Shown piece by piece: positions 6,657 through 50,624 of a stretch of 64,000 bases of DNA. The stretch's first letter is position 1. Every line of letters begins with the position of its first letter. The notes below the pieces were generated by a model. That model was given only the letters and a program-made list of their open reading frames with translations, was not told the origin of the DNA and did no database searches. The stretch is from Haliotis cracherodii (Eukaryota), in NCBI RefSeq assembly GCF_022045235.1, contig NW_027266264.1, positions 22,382,001 through 22,446,000 on the forward strand, in the 5' to 3' direction. Position numbers and translations under genes: made by a program.

Positions 6657-9600
6657 CTGAAACAGTAACAGTATCTAGTTGATCTGATAATCAGGGGTCT
6701 GAAACACTGACAGTGTCTACTTCATCAGATAATCAGGGGTCTGAAACACTGACAGTGTCTAGTTGATCTGATAATCAGGGGCCTGAAACACTGAAAGTTT
6801 CTAGTTGATCTGATAATCGGGGGATCTGAAACAGTTCATCAGATAACCAGGGATGTGAAACACTGACAGTGTCTAGTTCATCAGATAATCAGGGGTCTGA
6901 GACACTGACAGTGTCTAGTTCATCAGATAACCAGGGGTCTAAAACACTGACAGTTTTTGTTCATCACATAATCAGAAGCCTGAAACACTGAAAGTGTCTA
7001 GTTGATCTGATAATCGGGGATCTGAAACAGTTCATCAGATAACCAGGGATGTGAAACACTGACAGTGTCTTGTTCATCAGAAAAAAGAAAGATATTTCTT
7101 CAGTTTGTTTCAAATATGTAATTACCATTGTGCGTAGCAGCACTGACAGCAGCGAGTACACCTGTGCCGATGTAATTACCCAACCCGAACAGAGCCAGAA
7201 CTGCACCTTGCATCATCCCCTGCATAGACGAGGGCACCTGGGTGAAGCCGAACTCAAACGCTGCAAAGTATATTAACATTCCGTGAAGGTGATTTATTTT
7301 AACGTCAAGCACAATTTCTGTAAAATGGAACAAAACATCATACGCCCAAAATTTAAAGTTTCATTAATCTTGTGTAATGTTCAGTTGTATGAAGAAATAC
7401 TGGACAGTTAGTTTACTTTTGTTACACTGGAAGTACTTCATTGAAGCACAGGGCGGTAGGGTAGCCTAGTGGTTAAAGCGTTCGCTCGTCACGCCGAAGA
7501 CCCGGGTTCGATTCCCGACATGGGTACAATGTGTGAATTGCTGGAATATTGCTAAAAGCGGCGTAAAACCATACTCACTCACTCACTCACTCACTCATTG
7601 AAGTACATGGGCTGTTTTGTTGCTATCTTACCCTAGTTTATCACGTACCCTTTTCTCGAACACCTGGTGTCATCACTAAGTTTCAGTGATCCATTCATAT
7701 AATTGTCACCACTATTTTGCCTTTCTATGTACAATGGAATCTATTTCGAAGACTGGTTATCCTCTGGCGTTGGCGTTTTGTATCATTTCAATTATATTAT
7801 GTAGCTATTTTATTAATTACCCGGTACAAATGTGAAGACCTCACTCATTCCACCGATGACAATCTGAGGAGTTTGCAGAAACACTGAATAGTGGGACGAC
7901 CTGAAATCCTGTCCCCCTAGTGTCTGAATCATGCCACCAGAGGTCGCTATATCTCGCTTCCGGAAGATTTCAACCACACCGCTGACTACAACACCGATCA
8001 TCGCAATGATCATCCCGACACCTGCAATAGGAGTGAGCTTGGCGTAACGCTGATATCAACAATATTTTATATAACGGCGTGTCAGCACAATGTAGGGGGA
8101 ACGCCCGAGGTGAAGTAGGTCTTAGACGTTTACCACTAACATTGGTATGGAAACATTTTCAAGGCGAATCTTTGTTTCAGACCCACGATCACTGCATGTC
8201 TGGGTCGGCTAAGTGGCTCGTCTCTGCACAGCGAATTGTGGCACTGACTGAGCGCACGACTGTGGATTTAAAATATAAATTTGCAACGACAGGTCCACGG
8301 GACTGCAGATCTGAAAAACGATGTCCTACCAATCCTCTTGAGAAGCGTGAAGGGCCGACCAATCCGCTCCATGCAGGGGTAGAGGACGCGGTCGACGAAG
8401 GGGATGAGGATGAGGACGGCGATAGTGTTGAATATCCCTATAGCTGCCACAGGGATGGCGAAGTTGCCGAGCGTCACGTCCATCCTCAGAGACTGGAGGT
8501 AGGTTATGGACTGGGCCTGTGGAACAAGATGATGATGAATAATCAGGATGCCGCTGTGGACACTTTACGTATGTAGAGATCTTAAAGAATCTTAAACATG
8601 ATGACACCAGGTGTTCGAGAAAAGGGTACGTGATACACTAGGATCAGACAGCAACAAATCATCCCATGTACTTCCATGAAGTACTTCCAATGTAACAAAA
8701 GTAAATAACTGTCCACTATTTCTTCATACAACTGAACATTACACAAGATTATTTTAGGCTTATGATGTTTTGTTCCATTTTAAACAACATTTTAACATTG
8801 CACCCACAGCAGGAACGCGGCACTATAGGTGTCAACATGTTTCTTTCTCTGTATTGGTCCCGTCATCAGTAAAATACAAGTAACCTTCGCAAACTAAACA
8901 CTCAAGTTAGAACATTAAGATCAACCTCTGACGTCGCTTTGAGGCATATCTGGATGGGTCTTGTAATCGTAATTTTAAAATACATTTTAGCATTTAAGTA
9001 GTGTGTATACTGAAATTATGTCTTAATTGTCATACAGCACGGTTGTGAATGAGTAAATATTGTATAACGATGTATGAACATCTGTTCAATAGCTGTTCTT
9101 TGTAAGTAACATGAACACTGGGGTTGTTCAGAGGATACCTGAAAGTAGCAGGCGCCAAAGCCTGCGAGTGGGAGGAGAAGAAGGAGCACTTTGCCAAATG
9201 CAATGACCCCTGACACAGTTTCGTCGTCATAGCTACCACCGTAGCGTTTCCGGGGGGACTGGAAGAAAGGCTGTCCATCTCTTCTCTGCCTGACCGCTTC
9301 GTGAACCACACCCAAAGCAAGTTTCACGGAGCTCTCTGAAACTCATAGATATGCTGCTTTAATACTCCACTAACATTGAGTTAAATCAGCAGTGTCGATA
9401 CCCAGGTATATCAGACAGCACTATCGATACCAAGGTAGTTCAGACAGCACTATCCATACCCAGGTAGTTCTGATAGCAGTATCGATACCAAGGTAGTTCA
9501 GACAGCAGAATCGATACCCAGGTAGTTCATACAGCAGTATCAATACCAAAGTAGTTCAAACAGTAGTATCGATACCCAGGTAGTTCATACAGCAGTATCG

Positions 9601-12600: not shown

Positions 12601-15495
12601 AATCAGTCGTACGAGCCGTTACTATCGTTCGGAATACCCCGTGCTAACGTTTTCGAGGTTGCATGATAAGAAAATACATTCCGACTGTCACTTTCATGAT
12701 CTGGTAAGCCACGCTTTGATTGGTTGGATGAAAGGTCGTTCTGACGCGACCCGTAATGGGATGTCCTCAGATCTTTGTTTAGAGATAGGGAGAACTAAGA
12801 TCTGATTTTAATTAGGTTGAGCATATGCAAATTAGCTTGTAGCGATTAGCATAATTCTTTTAAAATATTCTCAAGAGTCGTCCTATAACTAATCGATCAT
12901 TGAATTGATTATCGTAGTGTTGTATGCGTGCTTTGCTAATGAGGTTCCACCTGTCAATAATGTTGCACGCCTTACCAGGTCAAGGTCAAACTGAGATCCA
13001 TCCTCATCTGTACCAAACAAAGGGCGATAATCCATCGCGGAGGCGGGAATTAGCACGAGTCCTGTACAGGAAGAATGTGAAGAATATGTATACAGTGGTG
13101 CTCTAGGTCATGCAATTGCTTTTAATTTAACCGTCAAGTACAAATATATCCATACTTACCTACTATTCTGACGGGTTGAACAGTATTTGAGATATTTTCA
13201 TACTTACCTATGATACAAAAGAGTTGAACAGTATTTGAGATATTTCCTTACTTGCCTATGATACAGACGAGTTGAACAGTATTTGAGATATTTCCATTCT
13301 TGCCTACAGTACAGACGAGGTGACGTGAGTGCAGACCTACCTACTATACAGACGGACCCGTGAAGATTCAGGTTAGAATAGGTCTTCAGCAACCAATGCT
13401 TGCGGTAAAAGGCGATTATGCTTGTCGTAAGAGGCGACCAACGGGATCGGGTGGTCAGGCTGGCTGACTTGGTCGATGCATGTCATCGTATCCCAGTTAC
13501 GTGGATCAATGCGCATCATGTTAATCACTGGATTCTCTGGTCCAGACACGATTGTTTACAGACCGCCGTCATATAGCTGGAATATTGCTGAGTGCGGCGT
13601 TAAACAACAAACAAACAAACTATACAGACGAGGTGACGTGAGTGCAGACCTACCCACAACATAGATGAATCCCGAGCCCAGGATGGCGTTGTAGCGACCA
13701 GACATAGAATCAGCGATGTAGCCTCCGAATAAAGGCAAAATCAGGGCTGTTCCTGCACAGAGAATATTGCCATTGGTTGTCCTCACCGTTGATATATAAT
13801 ACACTCGTGACCATCACGTGACCACGGCTGGGAAGTACGTGAGATTGAGACATCAATATTATAAATATTCTTTAAAACACTGTGTTCGTGACGTTTAAAC
13901 TGACATCGTTATTCCTGCTTCCAAAACAGTGGTCACACTCTAGAAACGTTACATCTTATTGAGGGTTTTCTTCTCACAGATTGGACACGCAACTAAACGT
14001 TAGAGAATGGTACATCCTAAAATTAACAGGAACAGGATGTTGTTGTGTGTACTGTGTAGTCGTAACGATGTTGTGTGTGCTGTGTCGTGTAGTCATGACG
14101 TTGTTGCGTGTGATGTGACATGTAGTCGTAACGTTGTTGTGTGTGTGCTATGGAGTCGTAAAGTTGTTGTGTGTGTTGTGTCATGTAGTTGTAACGTTGT
14201 GTGTGCTGTGTCGTGCAGTCGTAACACTGTTGTGTCGTGTAGTATCGTCGTTGTGTGTGCTGTGACGTGTGGTCGTAGTTGTGTGTGCTGTGTCGTGTAG
14301 TTGTAACGTTGTTGTGTGTACTGTGTCGTGTAGTCGTAACGTTGCTGTGTCCTGTTGAAACGTCGTTGTGTGTGCTGTGTCGTGTAGTCGTAACGTTGCT
14401 GTGTCCTGTTGAAACGTAGTTGTGTGTGCTGTGTCGTGTAGTCGTAACGTTGCTGTTTCCTGTTGAAACGTAGTTGTGTGTGCTGTGTCGTGTAGTCGTA
14501 ACGTTGCTGTGTCGTGTTGAAACGTAGTTGTGTGTGCTGTGTCGTGTAGTCGTAGTTGTGTGTGCTGTGTCGTGTAGTCGTAGTTGTGTGTGCTGTGTCG
14601 TGTAGTCGTATCGTCGTTGTGTGTGCTGTGTCGTGTAGTCGTAACGTTGCTGTGTCCTGTTGAAACGTTGTTGTGTGTGCTGTGTCGTGTAGTCGTAACG
14701 TTGCTGTGTCGTGTGGTCGTAACGTCGTTGTGTGTGCTGTGTCGTGTAGTCGTAACGTCGTTGTGTGTGCTGTGTCGTGTAGTCGTAACGTCGTTGTGTG
14801 TGCTGTATTGTGATCTAGTTACGATGCTGTTCGACATGCATGTGATGTGTTCAGTATTCGTCACGGTGTATTTTTTCACGTTGTTTTAAGTCGACCCTGC
14901 TGTATTGTCATTACCAATGGCGTTGTAGTTGACGTGCTGTATTGTCGTTAACAAAAGCGCTGTAGTATACGTTGTGTTGTCTTGTAGTAAAAGTATCGTA
15001 TTTTCATTAACAACGATGTTGTAGTCGACGTGCTCTATTGTCGTTAACAAAGGTGTCTGGTAAATGTATCATATTTTCATTAACAACGATGTTGTAGTTG
15101 ATGTGCTGTATTATCGTTAACAACGCTGTTGTAGTCGACGTGTTCTATTGTCGTTAACAAAGGTGCTGTGGTAAACGTATCGTATTTTCATTAACAACGA
15201 TGTTGTAGTCGACGTACTGTCGTAACGGCAGTGTAAAGAGTGAGCACCTACCAGCAAACACCTGATGTATTTTGACAGCCAGTGGAGCCGAGAGCTGCAG
15301 GATGCTGGTGGAGAAGAGCATCTGATTGGCCGTGACGCTGTAGTACGTCAACCGCTCACACATCTCAACGGTGAGGATGAATACTGCAGCAACCACACTC
15401 CGCCACGATAATTTCTGAGCACCGACATCGCCTCCCTCTATTATATGCCTTGATGTATCGCCCTTGTTGGCCACAGTGTCACTACCGTCCTCCAT
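6493..15495 (-). CDS. SLC15A4: SLC15 / POT-PTR2 proton-coupled oligopeptide (peptide/histidine) transporter, SLC15A4-like; complete 10-exon CDS, 540 aa
   Basis: Exons 15252-15495, 13654-13752, 12976-13061, 11743-11882, 11012-11181, 9139-9335, 8330-8516, 7821-8021, 7126-7260, 6493-6656; all GT-AG, total 1623 nt, open frame; motifs EMCERLTYY (ExxERxxYY), GGYIADSMSGRY, GTGGIKATVGPFGAQQ, FFNWFYWFINVGS; exact paralog identity uncertain. Confidence 0.9.
6637..7080. repeat. 42-bp tandem repeat containing the SLC15 exon 10 acceptor
   Basis: aggggtctgaaac recurs at 6651, 6693, 6735, 6777 and onward. Confidence 0.9.
7126..7260 (-). CDS. SLC15A4: SLC15A4-like exon 9 (AFEFGFTQVPSSMQGMMQG...GLGNYIG)
   Basis: EFxxxQxPxSMQG motif; cag acceptor, gtaat donor. 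Confidence 0.92.
7451..7594 (+). mobile_element. Short tRNA-derived SINE family B
   Basis: gtagcctagtgg / ggttcgattccc boxes, tRNA-Asp-like gtcacgc, (ACTC)n tail, TSD tcattgaagyaca. Confidence 0.88.
7821..8021 (-). CDS. SLC15A4: SLC15A4-like exon 8 (GVGMIIAMIGVVVSGVVEIFRK...LQTPQIVIGGMSEVFTFVP)
   Basis: VE..R and QxPQ...G.SE motifs; cag acceptor, gtaat donor. Confidence 0.92.
8330..8516 (-). CDS. SLC15A4: SLC15A4-like exon 7 (AQSITYLQSLRMD...IPFVDRVLYP...LKRI)
   Basis: Q..RMD and IPxxDRxxYP...LKRIG motifs; cag acceptor, gtagg donor. Confidence 0.92.
9139..9335 (-). CDS. SLC15A4: SLC15A4-like exon 6 (central loop and TM7, ...YGGSYDDETV...ACYFQ)
   Basis: GGxY...V loop motif and YFQ; cag acceptor, gtatc donor. 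Confidence 0.88.
9390..10876. repeat. 29-bp minisatellite, ~50 copies (gatacccaggtagttcagacagcagtatc), in SLC15 intron 5
   Basis: Directly visible and highly homogeneous. Confidence 0.97.
11012..11181 (-). CDS. SLC15A4: SLC15A4-like exon 5 (FYWFINVGSTIAFTAVAYVQQDISFTWGY...PPR)
   Basis: FYWxINxGS motif; cag acceptor, gtaag donor. Confidence 0.92.
11743..11882 (-). CDS. SLC15A4: SLC15A4-like exon 4 (TTRRVYYYIALVCIAVGTGGIKATVGPFGAQQ...RSFFNW)
   Basis: Classic GTGGIK...FG.xQ and FFNW POT motifs; aag acceptor, gtgag donor. Confidence 0.92.
12213..12819. mobile_element. Non-autonomous DNA transposon (MITE) with ~90-bp TIRs and a 9-bp TSD
   Basis: caatctcattaaaatcagatct...agatctgattttaattaggttg; flanks agcatacgc/agcatatgc; solo TIRs at ~16562 and ~35672. 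Confidence 0.85.
12976..13061 (-). CDS. SLC15A4: SLC15A4-like exon 3 (GLVLIPASAMDYRPLFGTDEDGSQFDLDL)
   Basis: tacag acceptor, gtaag donor; phases fit both neighbours; absent from the ORF track. Confidence 0.85.
13355..13618 (+). mobile_element. SINE-like retroposon family C (no tRNA head, structured 5' end, (AAAC)n tail)
   Basis: Starts gacccgtgaagat; 12-bp TSD actatacagacg. Confidence 0.88.
13654..13752 (-). CDS. SLC15A4: SLC15A4-like exon 2 (GTALILPLFGGYIADSMSGRYNAILGSGFIYVV)
   Basis: PTR2 signature region; cag acceptor and gtagg donor. Confidence 0.9.
14035..15225. repeat. Compound GT-rich tandem repeats in SLC15 intron 1
   Basis: tgtgtgctgtgtcgtgtagtcgtaacg units, then ~50-bp attaacaacgatgttgtagtcgacgt units. 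Confidence 0.9.
15252..15495 (-). CDS. SLC15A4: SLC15A4-like exon 1 (MEDGSD...VEMCERLTYYS...HQVFA)
   Basis: ATG at 15495-15493; ExxERxxYY motif; g|gtagg donor. Confidence 0.85.
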
Positions 15496-17739: not shown

Positions 17740-17984
17740 TTTGTTTGTTTGTTTGTTTGTTGTTTAACGCCGCACTCAGCAATATTCCAGCTATATGATG
17801 GCGGTATTGAATAATCGAGTCTGGACCAGACAATCCAGTGATTGACATCATGTAATTGGGATACGATGACATGCCTCAACCAAGTCAGCGAGCCTGACCT
17901 CCCGATCCCGGGACCCAGCATAATCGCCTTCAACGGCAAGCATGGGTTGCTGAAGACCTGTTCTACCCCGGATCTTCACGGGTC
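17740..17984 (-). mobile_element. Family C copy
   Basis: Reverse-complement homology; same 5' start; TSD-like gggataa. Confidence 0.85.
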
Positions 17985-19056: not shown

Positions 19057-19226
19057 GTGAGTGAGTGAGTGAGTATGGTTTTACGCCGCTCTAGCAATAT
19101 TCCAGCAATATCACGGCGGGGGACACCAGAAATGGGCTTCACACATTGTACCCATGTCGGGAATCGAACCCGGGTCTTCGGCGTGACGAGCGAACGCTTT
19201 AACCACTAGGCTACCCGACCGCGCCC
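19057..19226 (-). mobile_element. SINE family B
   Basis: Full length; TSD atccaaag(c/a)gaa. Confidence 0.9.
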
Positions 19227-33738: not shown

Positions 33739-36723
33739 GTGTGTGTGTGGGGGGGGGGGGGGGGGGGGGGATATGTACGGTGATGTAAATAAAGAGTGCC
33801 GTTTCTCTACCGATGTGTATATTTGTGACTCAATTTCGTCTACCGATGCGTTCATCTGTGACTCCATCTCGACTACAGATACGTATATCTGTGACTCTAT
33901 CTTATCTATCGATGCGTATATCTGTGACTCTATCTTATCTATCGATGCGCATATCTGTGACTCTATCTTATCTATCGATGCGTATATCTGTGACTCTATC
34001 TTATCTATCGATGCGTATATCTGTGACTCCATCTTATCACCCGTTACGTATACTTTTGATGCCGCCTTATCTACTGGTACGTGAATTTGCGATGCCGCTA
34101 TATCTGTCAATATGTGTACTTGACGCCATCTTGTCTACCGATGCGTACATCTGTGACTCCATCTTATCTATCAATACGTACATCTATGATTCCATCTTGT
34201 ATACAGACGCATACCTCTGTGCCTCTATCGTATCTACCGATGCGTATCTGCGACTCCATCTCGTCTACTGATGCGTATATGTGTGACTCCATCTTGTTTA
34301 CTGATAGAAGCAAAATCATTAGCAATAACTGTCCACGGTTCTTACGTTTCACACAGCACAAACAATTTACCCCTTTATCAGCAATATTGATTGAGTTTTG
34401 TTTGACTGTTTACACATTATCTTAGTTATATCTCTGCGTGTCAGCTAGATGTGGGAGGAAAACCCTAGTTGATGCAGGCTTTAGACGTTTACCACTTTGC
34501 TGAAACCCACGACGTGTCATGTGTCGTAAACATAGTATGACATGAACACTCACATAACATCCTCTATATATGCCCAACACGGCTTCTTGTGAGATTAAGC
34601 ACAACACAATAGTTGACCCGTCTCTGTATCCCGCTTGCAGGAAATGGTCCCTTCAGACTGCTGATCAATACCATATAATTAATATGAAAGATCAGGACTT
34701 AAGCGCCTTATTACTCCTCATTGTGCCGTAGATCTTAATGGCGTTCGTGGATGAAGATGTGTCTATACGTGTATGTGCTCGTCTCCTAATGTCACTGTCG
34801 ACACACGCTGATTTGTCATCACGAAGATAGTATGACTATCAGGCTGTGGCCTGACATTGTGCATTGATCTGCTCGATGAGGACGCTACACTCACATGTGC
34901 TAGCCCTGACTGGGATTATACCTGGTAATTTAGAGTATTCATAGAGAACATCTTTTTGTAAGTGACCAGCGGGACGATGTACTGGGCGTGGTACGAACAA
35001 ACAAAGACATACTACCCACATTTGGCTTCATCGCTGTGTCAATCTATATATTACATTAGTTAGCCTTTGTGTATGATTACACAATTCAGGTGTATCACGG
35101 AACATTATCTTAAATTGAGCGGTATTGTTTTTCTTCAGTATATTCCAGAAACCCCAAAACGGGAGAATACCAGAAATGGTTTTCATCCTTTGGACTGGGA
35201 TGTAGGGAATCAAACTTAAGGTGAACCGTTCACCATCTCATTAAATTAATGTCCTTCACTCCGATGCGTTAGAGATATGTCGACACCCTAAAAGAACTTA
35301 AAATCAGAATGCAAAATGTGTGTGTTTTGGGGCAAATAAAATGCCAGTTTTCTGAAACGTGTCGACTTGAAAATAAATACCCACACAGGACACACGTATG
35401 CCTTTGCTGGTACTCGCTTTTGGGTGTAGAGGTCAGGGAGTTCAGGGTATATAAAGTATCCACAAAAATATAACGTCGCGGCCCTATGTATCTACAGTCG
35501 GAACTTATCGATTCAATTCATTTTTGAGCTACAGAAGTCTGAATGCTTCGCTCACTCGTTTCAAGAATTTAAAAGCCTCGATGTTGATTGGTTCATTATA
35601 ATGTTCCCCTGACGTGACCATATATGGGGGTGCCCCCGGAAATTCACACAGAGGTATTGTATGAGAGTAAAAGATCTGATTGTAATTAGATTGAAGGCAC
35701 TAATTACACGGCTAGACTAAGACAGGAAATGAGGACCGTAGGCGTCGTTCTTTACTATTATCATGACGGTAATAGGGAATACGGTCTAATCCTTCTTAGA
35801 TCCCTCCACGTCGACAACGAAAGATAGTTTAAGGTTCTAGTAATACAACAGGGGAGGACCACGAAAGGGATTCGCCAGATACATCTATAAAGAGATGGAC
35901 CCTCAACCAATACTCAGCACACCATATATTTGTCCGCGAGGGGATTCCGGGTTAGATTTGTTTGTTTGTTTGTTTGTTTGTTGTTTAACGCAACACTCAG
36001 CAATATTCCATCTATATGACGACGGTCTGTAAATAATCGAATCTGGACATAGAATCCAGTGATTGACATAATGAGCATCGATCTACGTACGCAATTGGGA
36101 TACGATGACATGCTTCAACCAAGTCAGCGACCCTGACCACCCGATCCCGTTAGTCGCCTTTTACGACAAGCATAGACACCTTTTACGGCAAGCATGGGTT
36201 GCTGAAGACCTATTCTACCCCGGATCTTCACTGGTCTGGAAAAGGTCCCAGCAACCTATGATTGTCGTTAAAAGATGGCGGTGTTGTTGATCGTCATCGT
36301 ACAATGTTTATAATATCAACCACTATTTCTGAGTGCGGTTTAAACTCGCTTCACTCTCATGTATTAGAGGGGTGAACAACACGTGAACGTTCAACACACA
36401 ATTTCACCGACCAGTCAAAGCATGGCGCGTACATATGTTATGTATATACCTTAAAGTGTCCTTTGGTGATTTCCTTCCCCGTACGTTGACCAGTAGCAAG
36501 TACGCGGGGAAGAACATGGTCACCCACATCGTACAGAAGTAGGAGAGGGCGAAGGGAGCGTCGAAACCCGGCTGACTGGCATTTTGGGCCAGTTCCGAAA
36601 ACGCAACCCACGTGACAGCTATCAAGATGGCGAGAAGCACACCCCAAAGACACTTCCGGTGGAACTCGGTGAATTCACAGCACGGTTTGTAGGCCTGGGC
36701 AGGAGCGGCTGGGTTATCTACAT
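20466..36723 (-). CDS. SLC35F3: SLC35F3/F4-like (EamA/DMT family, putative thiamine) transporter; 7 exons recovered, 5' end missing
   Basis: Exons 36450-36723, 33400-33622, 25205-25330, 23686-23752, 22321-22443, 20983-21072, 20466-20677 join in frame via GT-AG; motifs FDAPF..YF.T.W, FVYMLSWIVL.EKFV.MRI, GIVLFAYVDGF, LLPENW; F3 vs F4 not resolvable. Confidence 0.88.
20983..21072 (-). CDS. SLC35F3: SLC35F-like exon (YQILINYVAVLTYPLFTGLGLAVAIPLCA)
   Basis: tttcag acceptor, gtaag donor; N....TYP...LG....IP motif. Confidence 0.9.
21830..22378. repeat. 65-66-bp tandem repeat containing an SLC35F exon end and its donor
   Basis: cttaccta(c/t)agtcaaagcagcag recurs 7 times. Confidence 0.92.
22321..22443 (-). 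CDS. SLC35F3: SLC35F-like exon (GTINIACLWPIVLALYYTGVEVIDWNQLPWQFICPTAALTV)
   Basis: tttccaaag acceptor, gtaagt donor; LY.T.VE...W..LPW..LC motif. Confidence 0.88.
23686..23752 (-). CDS. SLC35F3: SLC35F-like 67-nt exon (VLLKKLVGAATLGQISLFLTLI)
   Basis: tcttgcag acceptor, gtaagt donor; supplies the expected VLFK...GQVSLFL segment with correct phases. Confidence 0.88.
24376..24482. mobile_element. Diverged copy of the Harbinger-like MITE
   Basis: gatcttagcgct...gttacgatcgtc homology to 15588-15690. Confidence 0.55.
24601..24922 (-). mobile_element. SINE family A copy
   Basis: Reverse complement of 462-883 without the microsatellite; TSD ctcactcacatg. Confidence 0.88.
25205..25330 (-). CDS. 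SLC35F3: SLC35F-like exon (ILAMIFSITGIVLFAYVDGFGSQAMWGVVVAVAASAGIATYK)
   Basis: tttcag acceptor, gtgagt donor. Confidence 0.93.
26147..26300 (+). mobile_element. SINE family B, diverged
   Basis: Degenerate head and tail homology. Confidence 0.75.
26977..27108. mobile_element. Hairpin MITE, ~60-bp near-perfect arms and 12-nt loop
   Basis: ccacaggagtccgtatctaaa...tttagatacggactcctgtgg; flanks tcagtcagt/tcagtcatt. Confidence 0.85.
27343..27519 (-). mobile_element. Family C copy, 5'-truncated
   Basis: Homology from cgactaacgggatcggg to the tail. Confidence 0.8.
27850..28082 (+). mobile_element. Family D fragment followed by a diverged family B SINE
   Basis: cccgtgctcgtgggtttc...gtaaacgtct body, then gggcggtagggtagc head and (ACTC)n tail. 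Confidence 0.7.
28221..28428 (+). mobile_element. Family C copy, diverged
   Basis: gacccgtgaa start, single hairpin module, (AAAC)n tail. Confidence 0.8.
29590..29914. mobile_element. Harbinger-like MITE with an internal ~54-bp tandem expansion
   Basis: ggtgttcgttgtgcaaagc...ttttgtacaacggtaccc ends; 5 internal units; ctg flanks. Confidence 0.72.
30045..30206 (-). mobile_element. SINE family B inserted in the Tc1 relic
   Basis: Full length; perfect 12-bp TSD gacaacaaagga. Confidence 0.92.
30305..30592. repeat. ~58-bp G-rich tandem repeat
   Basis: gaattagaggggagggtgggtttactgttg x5. Confidence 0.9.
31101..31173. mobile_element. Mini hairpin MITE with 9-bp TSD
   Basis: cagactggttccctg...cagggaaccaggctg; flanks agttcccag/agtttccag. 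Confidence 0.78.
31285..32240. repeat. ~37-bp tandem repeat (tctacctggcgtgggtattatttc)
   Basis: Directly visible; explains the repetitive ORFs at 31323-32242. Confidence 0.92.
33030..33225 (+). mobile_element. Family C copy, old and degenerate
   Basis: gtcttcagcaacccatgc ... acgggatcgggtg homology. Confidence 0.7.
33400..33622 (-). CDS. SLC35F3: SLC35F-like exon (DGLRIF...FCLVWSVTIFTYIKAL...FVYMLSWIVLFEKFVAMR)
   Basis: cttttcag acceptor, gtagg donor; strongly conserved motif. Confidence 0.93.
33805..34305. repeat. 33-bp tandem repeat (gatgcgtatatctgtgactctatcttatctatc)
   Basis: Directly visible; preceded by (GA)n/(GT)n/(G)n microsatellites. Confidence 0.88.
35956..36236 (-). mobile_element. 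Family C copy
   Basis: Full-length reverse-complement homology. Confidence 0.87.
36450..36723 (-). CDS. SLC35F3: SLC35F-like exon (..KCLWGVLLAILIAVTWVAFSELAQ...FDAPFALSYFCTMW...)
   Basis: tttcag acceptor, ag|gtata donor; TM1-TM2 motifs. Confidence 0.88.
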
Positions 36724-42860: not shown

Positions 42861-43075
42861 GACCCGTGACAATCTGGGGTAGAATAGGTCTTCAGCAACC
42901 CATGCTTGCCCTTAAAGGCGACTATGCTAGTAGTAAGAGGCGACTAACAGGATCGGGTGGTCAGGCTTGCTGACTTGGTTGATGCATGTTATTGATCCCA
43001 GTAGCGTGAATCGATGCTCATGATATCAATCACTGGATTGCCTGGTGCATAATTTACAGACAGCGGTCATATTGC
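42861..43075 (+). mobile_element. Family C copy, 3'-degraded
   Basis: gacccgtg start and body homology. Confidence 0.8.
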
Positions 43076-50378: not shown

Positions 50379-50624
50379 GACCCATGAAGATCTGGGGTCA
50401 TCATCAACCCATGCTTGCCGTAAGAGGTGACAATGCTTGTCATAAGAGGCGACTAACGGGATCGGGTGGTGTCGCTCGCTGACTTGGTTGATGCACGTCA
50501 TCGTATCCTAATTGCGTGGATCGATGCTCATGATGTCAATCACTGAATTGTCTTGTCCAAACTCGATTATTTACAGACCGCCGTCATGTATCTGGATTTT
50601 GCAGCGGCGTTAAACATCAAACAA
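50379..50624 (+). mobile_element. Family C copy
   Basis: gaccc start; 12-bp TSD acattgtcaaag. Confidence 0.87.

Follow-up and report, generated by a model that had tools for sequence, protein, structure and literature searches.

A LINE-derived retroposon head in Haliotis, predicted to fold as a double pseudoknot that also occurs in viral contigs

LP-SINEs, a group of short interspersed elements (SINEs), have been described in Haliotis, Ostrea, Saccostrea and Littorina (PMC4758252). In the accessible text of that 2016 account, their head of about 70 bp is shared with the 5′ ends of the long interspersed elements (LINEs) Nimb-17_LMi, I-3_DR and RTE-9_CPB, a promoter role is proposed with a parallel to the promoter-plus-ribozyme of ingi/L1Tc, and both the function of the head and the transcribing polymerase are left open. 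The subject of this study is family C, a retroposon family with eight copies in a 64,000-nt stretch of the Haliotis cracherodii genome (assembly GCF_022045235.1, contig NW_027266264.1, positions 22,382,001 to 22,446,000; hereafter the window, whose own numbering is used below). The copy at 13355-13618 is a retroposon of about 265 nt with a 12-bp target-site duplication (TSD) and a (CAAA)n tail. Family C resembles Hdi_LP, Hmi_LP, Lsa_2 and Sgl_LP in being short and TSD-flanked, in ending in a tandem repeat and in having a head from a LINE 5′ untranslated region (UTR), as far as the accessible description goes (PMC4758252). It fits the published LP-SINEs, being set beside Hdi_LP and Hmi_LP by description and by the 255-bp length of the Haliotis consensus only, and the AATATA hexamer named for Haliotis LP-SINEs reads AATATT in the copy at 13355. 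The SINE family has already been published, as has the derivation of its head from LINEs. In contrast, a structure, viral copies and a partner LINE headed by a hepatitis delta virus (HDV)-like ribozyme, all of which are given here, do not appear in the accessible text of that account. The fold, the viral copies and the leader combining HDV-like ribozyme and motif were also absent from Rfam and from the searchable literature, a search in which figures, most subscription papers and bioRxiv supplements lay outside reach and automated lists of viral motifs may hold the motif unnamed.

On comparative sequence evidence, the head is a real, uncatalogued structured RNA. It is predicted to be a LINE-derived module of about 75 nt in which two stacked H-type pseudoknots are built around an invariant hairpin. 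The predicted pseudoknots are consecutive, with a loop L1 of one base, a loop L3 that ends in AGAAUA, and the hairpin GUCG-UANRAGG-CGAC-UAA inside the second. In the copy at 13355, which lies on the forward strand, the 5′ strand of helix S1 (13357-13360) would pair with 13369-13372, with one mismatch here, and 13361 is the one-base loop L1. The 7-bp helix S2 (13362-13387) joins 13362-13368 to 13381-13387 around a loop that contains the 3′ strand of S1 together with the conserved AGAAUA (13375-13380). Directly 3′ of S2 follows the 4-bp helix P3 (13388-13400), which joins 13388-13391 to 13397-13400 and whose loop, 13392-13396, is the 5′ strand of helix P4. The invariant hairpin with its UAA, which is CAA in this copy, occupies 13424-13441, and the P4 3′ strand at 13442-13445 would complete the second pseudoknot by pairing with the P3 loop. 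Two of the conserved positions have decayed in this copy. The hairpin loop (13428-13434) has 7 nt, is closed by a G-C pair and has U1, a purine at 4 and A5; it resembles a T-loop motif, although A2 is atypical.

The evidence for this fold comes from homologues in the same genome, in metagenomes (at least 122 loci), in genome contigs and in viral contigs. Aligning 19 non-viral rows with plain MAFFT already gave the 7-bp S2 with the 4-bp P3 directly behind it. With 30 rows placed on the model, pairing was seen in 92% of 449 cells, as compared to 71% in shuffles, and two-sided changes were seen at all seven S2 pairs and all four P3 pairs, with none in the hairpin stem. S1 (the 5′ strand with the start of the S2 loop) and P4 (the P3 loop with the segment after UAA) were scored on 27 rows after three redundant family C rows had been dropped. 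None of 5000 shuffles reached the score of S1, which was 4.19 bp versus 3.10 bp in shuffles, and none of 5000 reached that of P4. The covariation that the first-pass annotation of this locus had named as the test of its proposed structure is present for S1, S2, P3 and P4 across animal retroposons and viruses, and the stem it had drawn between TGAAGAYC and GGTCTTCA is real. Its other proposals fared less well. Pairing of the G-run of the loop with AACCC shows no covariation (432/5000 shuffles reach the score), and neither does closure of the 5′ end on ACGGG (3448/5000). Nested folding of family C itself at minimum energy yields the latter pairing, which may be an alternative conformer in this family, alongside the duplicated hairpin and shortened P4. 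Folding energy lends no support to the description of the head as highly structured (z of -1.1 and -1.35). Two features had escaped the earlier description, namely P3 and a 22-nt tandem duplication of the hairpin, specific to family C, which gives two units in 46 of 58 heads and whose first, degenerate unit lies at 13395-13416 in the copy at 13355. The head of the scallop (pectinoid) MESC SINE, as given in the accessible text of PMC4758252, has the same hairpin core, and all four helices can be fitted to it by eye.

The motif has no match in Rfam at gathering or E-value thresholds. The hammerhead, twister, twister-sister, pistol, hatchet and hairpin ribozyme models, where present in Rfam 15, left it unmatched at E values up to 5-10 in sets of 6, 15 and 11 loci. 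The suggestion of a conserved fold matching no catalogued ribozyme is supported by these absences and by the covariation.

The occurrence of the fold in viral contigs is an observation that is new here: RNA-virus-like contigs carry it shortly past the final stop codon, and one large DNA virus carries it in an intergenic position. A pattern describing only the hairpin core gave 11 viral matches; in seven of them (six distinct sequences) AGAATA and the helices are also present upstream, although neither was part of the pattern. A second pattern added one further carrier, L288, for a total of seven distinct contigs; other wider patterns, including two without the hairpin stem and some without UAA, added nothing beyond it. 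A model built from retroposons only scores the seven contigs at 43-70 bits, as compared to at most 27 bits for chance matches to the core alone. Within the viral rows by themselves, both S1 (28/5000 shuffles) and P4 (31/5000) covary, and UAA is kept in all seven contigs. Taken together, the viral scores and the covariation among viral rows indicate a function at the RNA level. Each of the six RNA-virus-like contigs carries the motif in sense orientation, starting 3-195 nt past the last stop, with 14-119 nt left between the end of the core and that of the contig. Neighbouring open reading frames (ORFs) match Peptidase_A21 in L033, RdRP_4 in L036, RdRP_3 together with a nodavirus-type capsid in L038, RdRP_3 in L040 and the S-domain coat in L288; L031 has a second, tandem copy of the motif that is cut by the contig end. 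The seventh contig, L034, belongs to a DNA virus, is 212 kb long and encodes an NAD-dependent DNA ligase; one intact motif (1452-1526) lies there between two genes, about 118 nt past a stop codon.

Eight pattern matches in 185,579 prokaryotic genomes include none that is convincing: two score like chance, and the other six are read as animal contamination from repetitive non-coding flanks, from short contigs or from positions at contig ends. A search of 50,697 phage records gave no match.

In retroposons, the 5′ end of the element follows the structure and neither the sequence nor the spacing. In family C (n = 41) and in three families from metagenomes (n = 39, 8 and 9), conservation begins 7 nt before the first S2 pair, which leaves a leader of 0-2 nt before S1, while the first base is G, A, G and G, respectively, and the distance from the start to AGAAU is 15, 18, 20 and mostly 31 nt. 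The three metagenome families are probably animal retroposons, judging from their TSDs, tails and non-coding flanks; the flanks are short, and exact TSDs were seen in only 1, 1 and 2 copies. The start of scallop copies lies within 2-5 consecutive C. The sharp 5′ end that had been reported for family C is real. Six of the eight window copies start at GACC(C), as described earlier, and the remaining two are 5′-truncated; the TSDs directly adjoin the 5′ end at 13355, where the 12-bp repeats lie at 13343-13354, next to G1, and at 13619-13630, and also at 50379. To obtain an unselected view, copies were picked by their body alone from 664 kb (60 genome stretches plus the window), and those near edges were dropped. 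Of these 111 copies, 50 start at bases 1-3 and nine at bases 4-10, and several of the later-starting ones are one-hairpin variants whose head aligned separately. A TSD was detected in 24 of 48 near-complete copies, in 12 of which exactly G sits between the TSD and A2. Position -1 was inspected for the G excess expected of a copied cap; it has none, and a cap-derived G at the 5′ end was rejected. Exact matches to one family C 31-mer number 14,257 in the genome (reversed control, 0), and extrapolation from the 664-kb sample would put the family, fragments included, on the order of 10^5 copies.

The derivation of the head from a LINE 5′UTR, one of the two readings offered in the first-pass annotation, is supported by the accessible text of PMC4758252 and by a LINE of the same genome. 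This element, L276, is full length, with endonuclease (APE), reverse transcriptase, RNase H, a TSD and the motif in its 5′UTR, about 530 nt from the start of ORF1. Its domains, head and tail suggest a Nimb-like LINE of the I group. The tail is homologous to that of family C (0/1000 shuffles), but L276 may not be the exact partner because its terminal microsatellite differs. Upstream of the motif the LINE has a 57-nt HDV-like fold with weak matches to RF02682 (L276:258-314, near 45,531,657 of the own-genome contig C67), and about 2,000 first-look candidates of such an I-group LINE start were seen. A descriptor made for this analysis (nested P1/P2/P3/P1.1 with the catalytic C in J4/2) fits 23 of 30 LINE leaders and none of 30 family C copies. 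HDV-like ribozymes are known at the 5′ ends of R1, R2, R4, RTE and Ingi as well as LOA LINEs, according to the accessible text of PMC5786205. The family C head is like them in being an RNA fold at the extreme 5′ end that could free a retroelement from the need for its own promoter, but it lacks their nested topology, and in the LINE the genuine HDV-like fold stands upstream of the motif. When LINE copies were selected by sequence downstream of the motif, 28 of 30 started at the HDV G1, two were cut inside the HDV-like fold and none started at the motif, in a set that includes the query itself and duplicated flanks. Behind the HDV-like fold the helices are kept, with a compensatory S2 variant between LINE subfamilies, while the UAA is relaxed (207 exact matches with CCRA versus 6 with UAA). 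Of eight distinct LINE copies with intact UAA, seven still start at the HDV-like fold. Versions of the 5′UTR with an intact core and no HDV-like fold are single copies only (L299 and L381). A subfamily of this kind in the own genome was sought and rejected, as there is one divergent fragment with no close relatives among 40 scored. Dense clusters of HDV-headed LINEs, some of them nested (L275, L277, L278), lie at 20.8-21.75 Mb of own-genome contig C2, 30.2-31.1 Mb of C3 and 14.2-14.4 Mb of C4 (all G000).

These observations bear directly on whether the head could be an undescribed self-cleaving ribozyme, cutting just 5′ of S1 and freeing the element from read-through transcripts as the HDV-like ribozymes of R2, RTE and Ingi do. 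A sharp 5′ end of fixed geometry that follows any upstream base, a double pseudoknot with invariant loop bases, and the HDV-less 5′UTR versions with an intact core would all suit such an activity, as would the alteration of UAA in most HDV-carrying LINE copies, as if cutting had to be switched off there; the ingi/L1Tc parallel drawn in the accessible text of PMC4758252 points the same way. However, seven of the eight intact-core LINE copies retain the HDV-like fold, an efficient cut would strip the last 90-180 nt from linear RNA virus genomes, and known ribozyme models do not fit. Family C ends are also less precise than HDV LINE ends: 32 of the best 40 family C matches begin at base 1, with slight raggedness, as compared to 40 of 40 for the HDV LINE. 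Efficient self-cleavage fits these facts poorly, and we regard this explanation as improbable. If cleavage were true, the motif would represent a new ribozyme class; that it is a small self-cleaving class confined to eukaryotes, passed among LINEs of different clades, SINEs and RNA viruses, and attenuated where an HDV-like ribozyme took over, seems to us similarly improbable.

The explanation we favour, in a tentative way, is that the head acts like an exoribonuclease-resistant RNA (xrRNA), blocking a 5′-3′ exoribonuclease and carving the SINE RNA out of longer transcripts. It is favoured because an RNA-level function, the setting of a 5′ end, the tolerance of an upstream HDV-like ribozyme and the tolerance of a downstream viral genome end are all accommodated by it. 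The SINE would be transcribed inside host RNA polymerase II transcripts (introns or read-through), Xrn1 or Xrn2 would halt at the fold, and the trimmed, stable RNA, starting at the structure, would be ready for copying by an I/Nimb-type LINE. In viruses the fold would, like xrRNAs, leave a protected 3′ RNA, and behind an HDV ribozyme it would serve as an additional, partly redundant safeguard; a bound protein or ribosome may be required for the block. A retained HDV would be tolerated by such a passive block because the HDV product has a 5′-OH, an end that Xrn1 does not attack. The start that follows the structure across families, the helices that persist behind the HDV-like fold while UAA relaxes, the slight raggedness of family C ends and the missing G excess at -1 also count in its favour. 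The viral xrRNAs of the flavivirus classes are, like the motif, compact pseudoknotted RNAs located in 3′UTRs, sometimes in tandem, with ends (Xrn1 halt sites) precise to 1-2 nt in the accessible text of PMC5760640. The motif differs from them in having no three-way junction, another topology and no Rfam match, and in sitting at retroposon 5′ ends. It may be a new xrRNA class and the first to define a retrotransposon 5′ end, a proposal that we hold with the same tentative preference and consider less bold and more likely than a new ribozyme class. A decay block, if true, would be a third route to a defined retroposon 5′ end besides promoters and ribozymes, and an uncatalogued xrRNA common to several animal RNA virus families and host transposons would imply exchange of a functional RNA module. 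With the covariation-backed fold, the function of the LP head becomes testable with a 75-nt RNA.

Several points weigh against a decay block. Mosquito-borne xrRNAs stop Xrn1 5-6 nt before the first stem and tick-borne ones halt it inside the stem (accessible text of PMC5760640), whereas the leader before S1 is only 0-2 nt, and a fit requires counting from S2 (7 nt), as in the tick-borne case. About 20 loop and hairpin bases are near-invariant, which is beyond the obvious need of a mechanical block and is typical of catalysis or factor binding. The described xrRNA classes in Rfam do not match the motif. Our shuffle controls take no account of relatedness, and the homologues were gathered by hairpin-based patterns, so the invariance of the hairpin is partly selected. 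L031 matches nothing in Pfam, and its likeness to an RNA virus is by eye only. The raggedness of family C 5′ ends may come from junction formation or copy age. Three small-RNA runs yielded 30 reads with no pile-up at the end, too few to inform. Finally, the strands follow the same order as in a ribosome-binding viral RNA, the T-shaped structure (TSS) of Turnip crinkle virus (TCV).

The TCV TSS, a 3′ element that enhances cap-independent translation, is described in the accessible text of PMC5336357 and PMC5712577 as a fold of three hairpins with a pair of coaxial H-type pseudoknots, situated close to the 3′ end of a viral RNA; the order, taken from text, runs from the 5′ pseudoknot strand through three successive hairpins to the 3′ pseudoknot strand, as in our motif. 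This likeness raises an alternate explanation, that the head is a TSS-like module binding ribosomes or an initiation factor, which would promote cap-independent translation, both in viruses and of the uncapped RNA of the LINE, and deliver the SINE to ribosomes engaged in ORF2 protein synthesis, the 5′ end being a by-product of a ribonucleoprotein roadblock or set otherwise. The 3′UTR location is shared, two of the viral carriers have RdRP_3 and one the S-domain coat, and invariant loop bases would suit a conserved eukaryotic partner, with no convincing prokaryotic or phage cases among the genomes and records searched; retention of the HDV-like fold is compatible as well. On its own, however, this explanation leaves the equal distance from S2 to the start in several retroposon families unaccounted for, and in the LINE the motif lies about 530 nt away from where ORF1 begins. 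The motif is also shorter than the TSS (72-95 nt, about 75, against about 100), its third hairpin is an invariant 15-nt unit in place of the long H5 with its large symmetrical internal loop, and it is carried by animal retroposons and unrelated viruses. We consider a TSS-like role unlikely. Alu reaches ribosomes through SRP9/14, and a ribosome-binding head, if true, would give animals a counterpart of the plant-virus TSS and SINEs a strategy like that of Alu. The mechanistic roles are compatible with one another and can coexist.

A DNA-level internal promoter, the published hypothesis for LP heads, would place the start at G1 and leave the RNA fold to serve a later step. I-group LINEs have internal RNA polymerase II promoters, a precedent for this proposal. 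It also agrees with the position of the head at the 5′ end of both LINEs and SINEs, as proposed in the accessible text of PMC4758252, with the purine at +1 in four families and with the slight raggedness of the ends. However, the conserved bases persist in RNA viruses, which have no DNA stage, and S1, S2, P3 and P4 change in sequence while keeping their pairing. The distance from the start to the conserved block is not fixed, scallop copies begin in a C run, and the intact-core LINE copies include 57 nt of HDV-like sequence upstream that a promoter starting at S1 would skip. We give the promoter little credence, and the tentative preference for a decay block stands.

The first-pass annotation had reported no RNA polymerase III A or B box. 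This holds for the B box, found in none of 30 copies with up to one mismatch; an A-box-like 12-mer lies about 107 nt inside the element and is exact in 7 of 30 copies (13461-13472 in the copy at 13355). ARAGORN found no tRNA in family C, and a tRNA, 5S or 7SL head, which would have been an ordinary origin, received no support from Rfam, ARAGORN or the B-box search. Behind the head lies the body, at 13446-13562. Its derivation from the L276 5′UTR was rejected for want of a match (232/500 shuffles reach the score), and so was a tRNA remnant: the body is collinear with the head of a tRNA-headed SINE, but not significantly (197-311 of 1000 shuffles; 51 of 300). The window does contain such a SINE, with good A and B boxes, at 7461, 19149-19220 and 37686, and it has a LINE-type tail in common with family C. 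The LINE-related tail of the copy at 13355 with its (CAAA)n (13563-13618) is the part homologous to the L276 3′ end. Bipartite non-autonomous LINEs of the RIME and Bov-A type likewise have both ends derived from a LINE and no ORF, and are reported only for RTE, Ingi, Vingi and R2 in the accessible text of PMC5786205; unlike these, family C has a body that matches no part of the L276 5′UTR.

The other heads in the window are at 17911-17984 (reverse strand, a single hairpin unit), 28221-28294 (forward, decayed), 36141-36236 (reverse), 42861-42956 (forward) and 50379-50465 (forward, with a deletion that removed the S2 3′ strand). The copy at 13355 is embedded in a degenerate tandem repeat of about 50 nt (13130-13352 and 13619-13665), which extends the match past the TSD. 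Older head variants with a different S2 sequence and one hairpin unit occur elsewhere in the genome (L044, L053, L068, L360:3818-3893) and suggest several LP-SINE subfamilies. Several bacterial genome records (L294-L299) include short contigs or contig ends with animal-like retroposon DNA. One of them, near the start of a contig of a soil metagenome-assembled genome, is a motif-headed element ending in a long GAA repeat (L298:974-1200); it is likely to be animal contamination, and its sequence past the motif is reminiscent of RTE 5′UTRs. Family C or LINE 5′ ends recur as pairs in head-to-head or inverted arrangement (L003, L064, L309, L318, L391, L393/L394), possibly through twin priming or insertion into their own copies.

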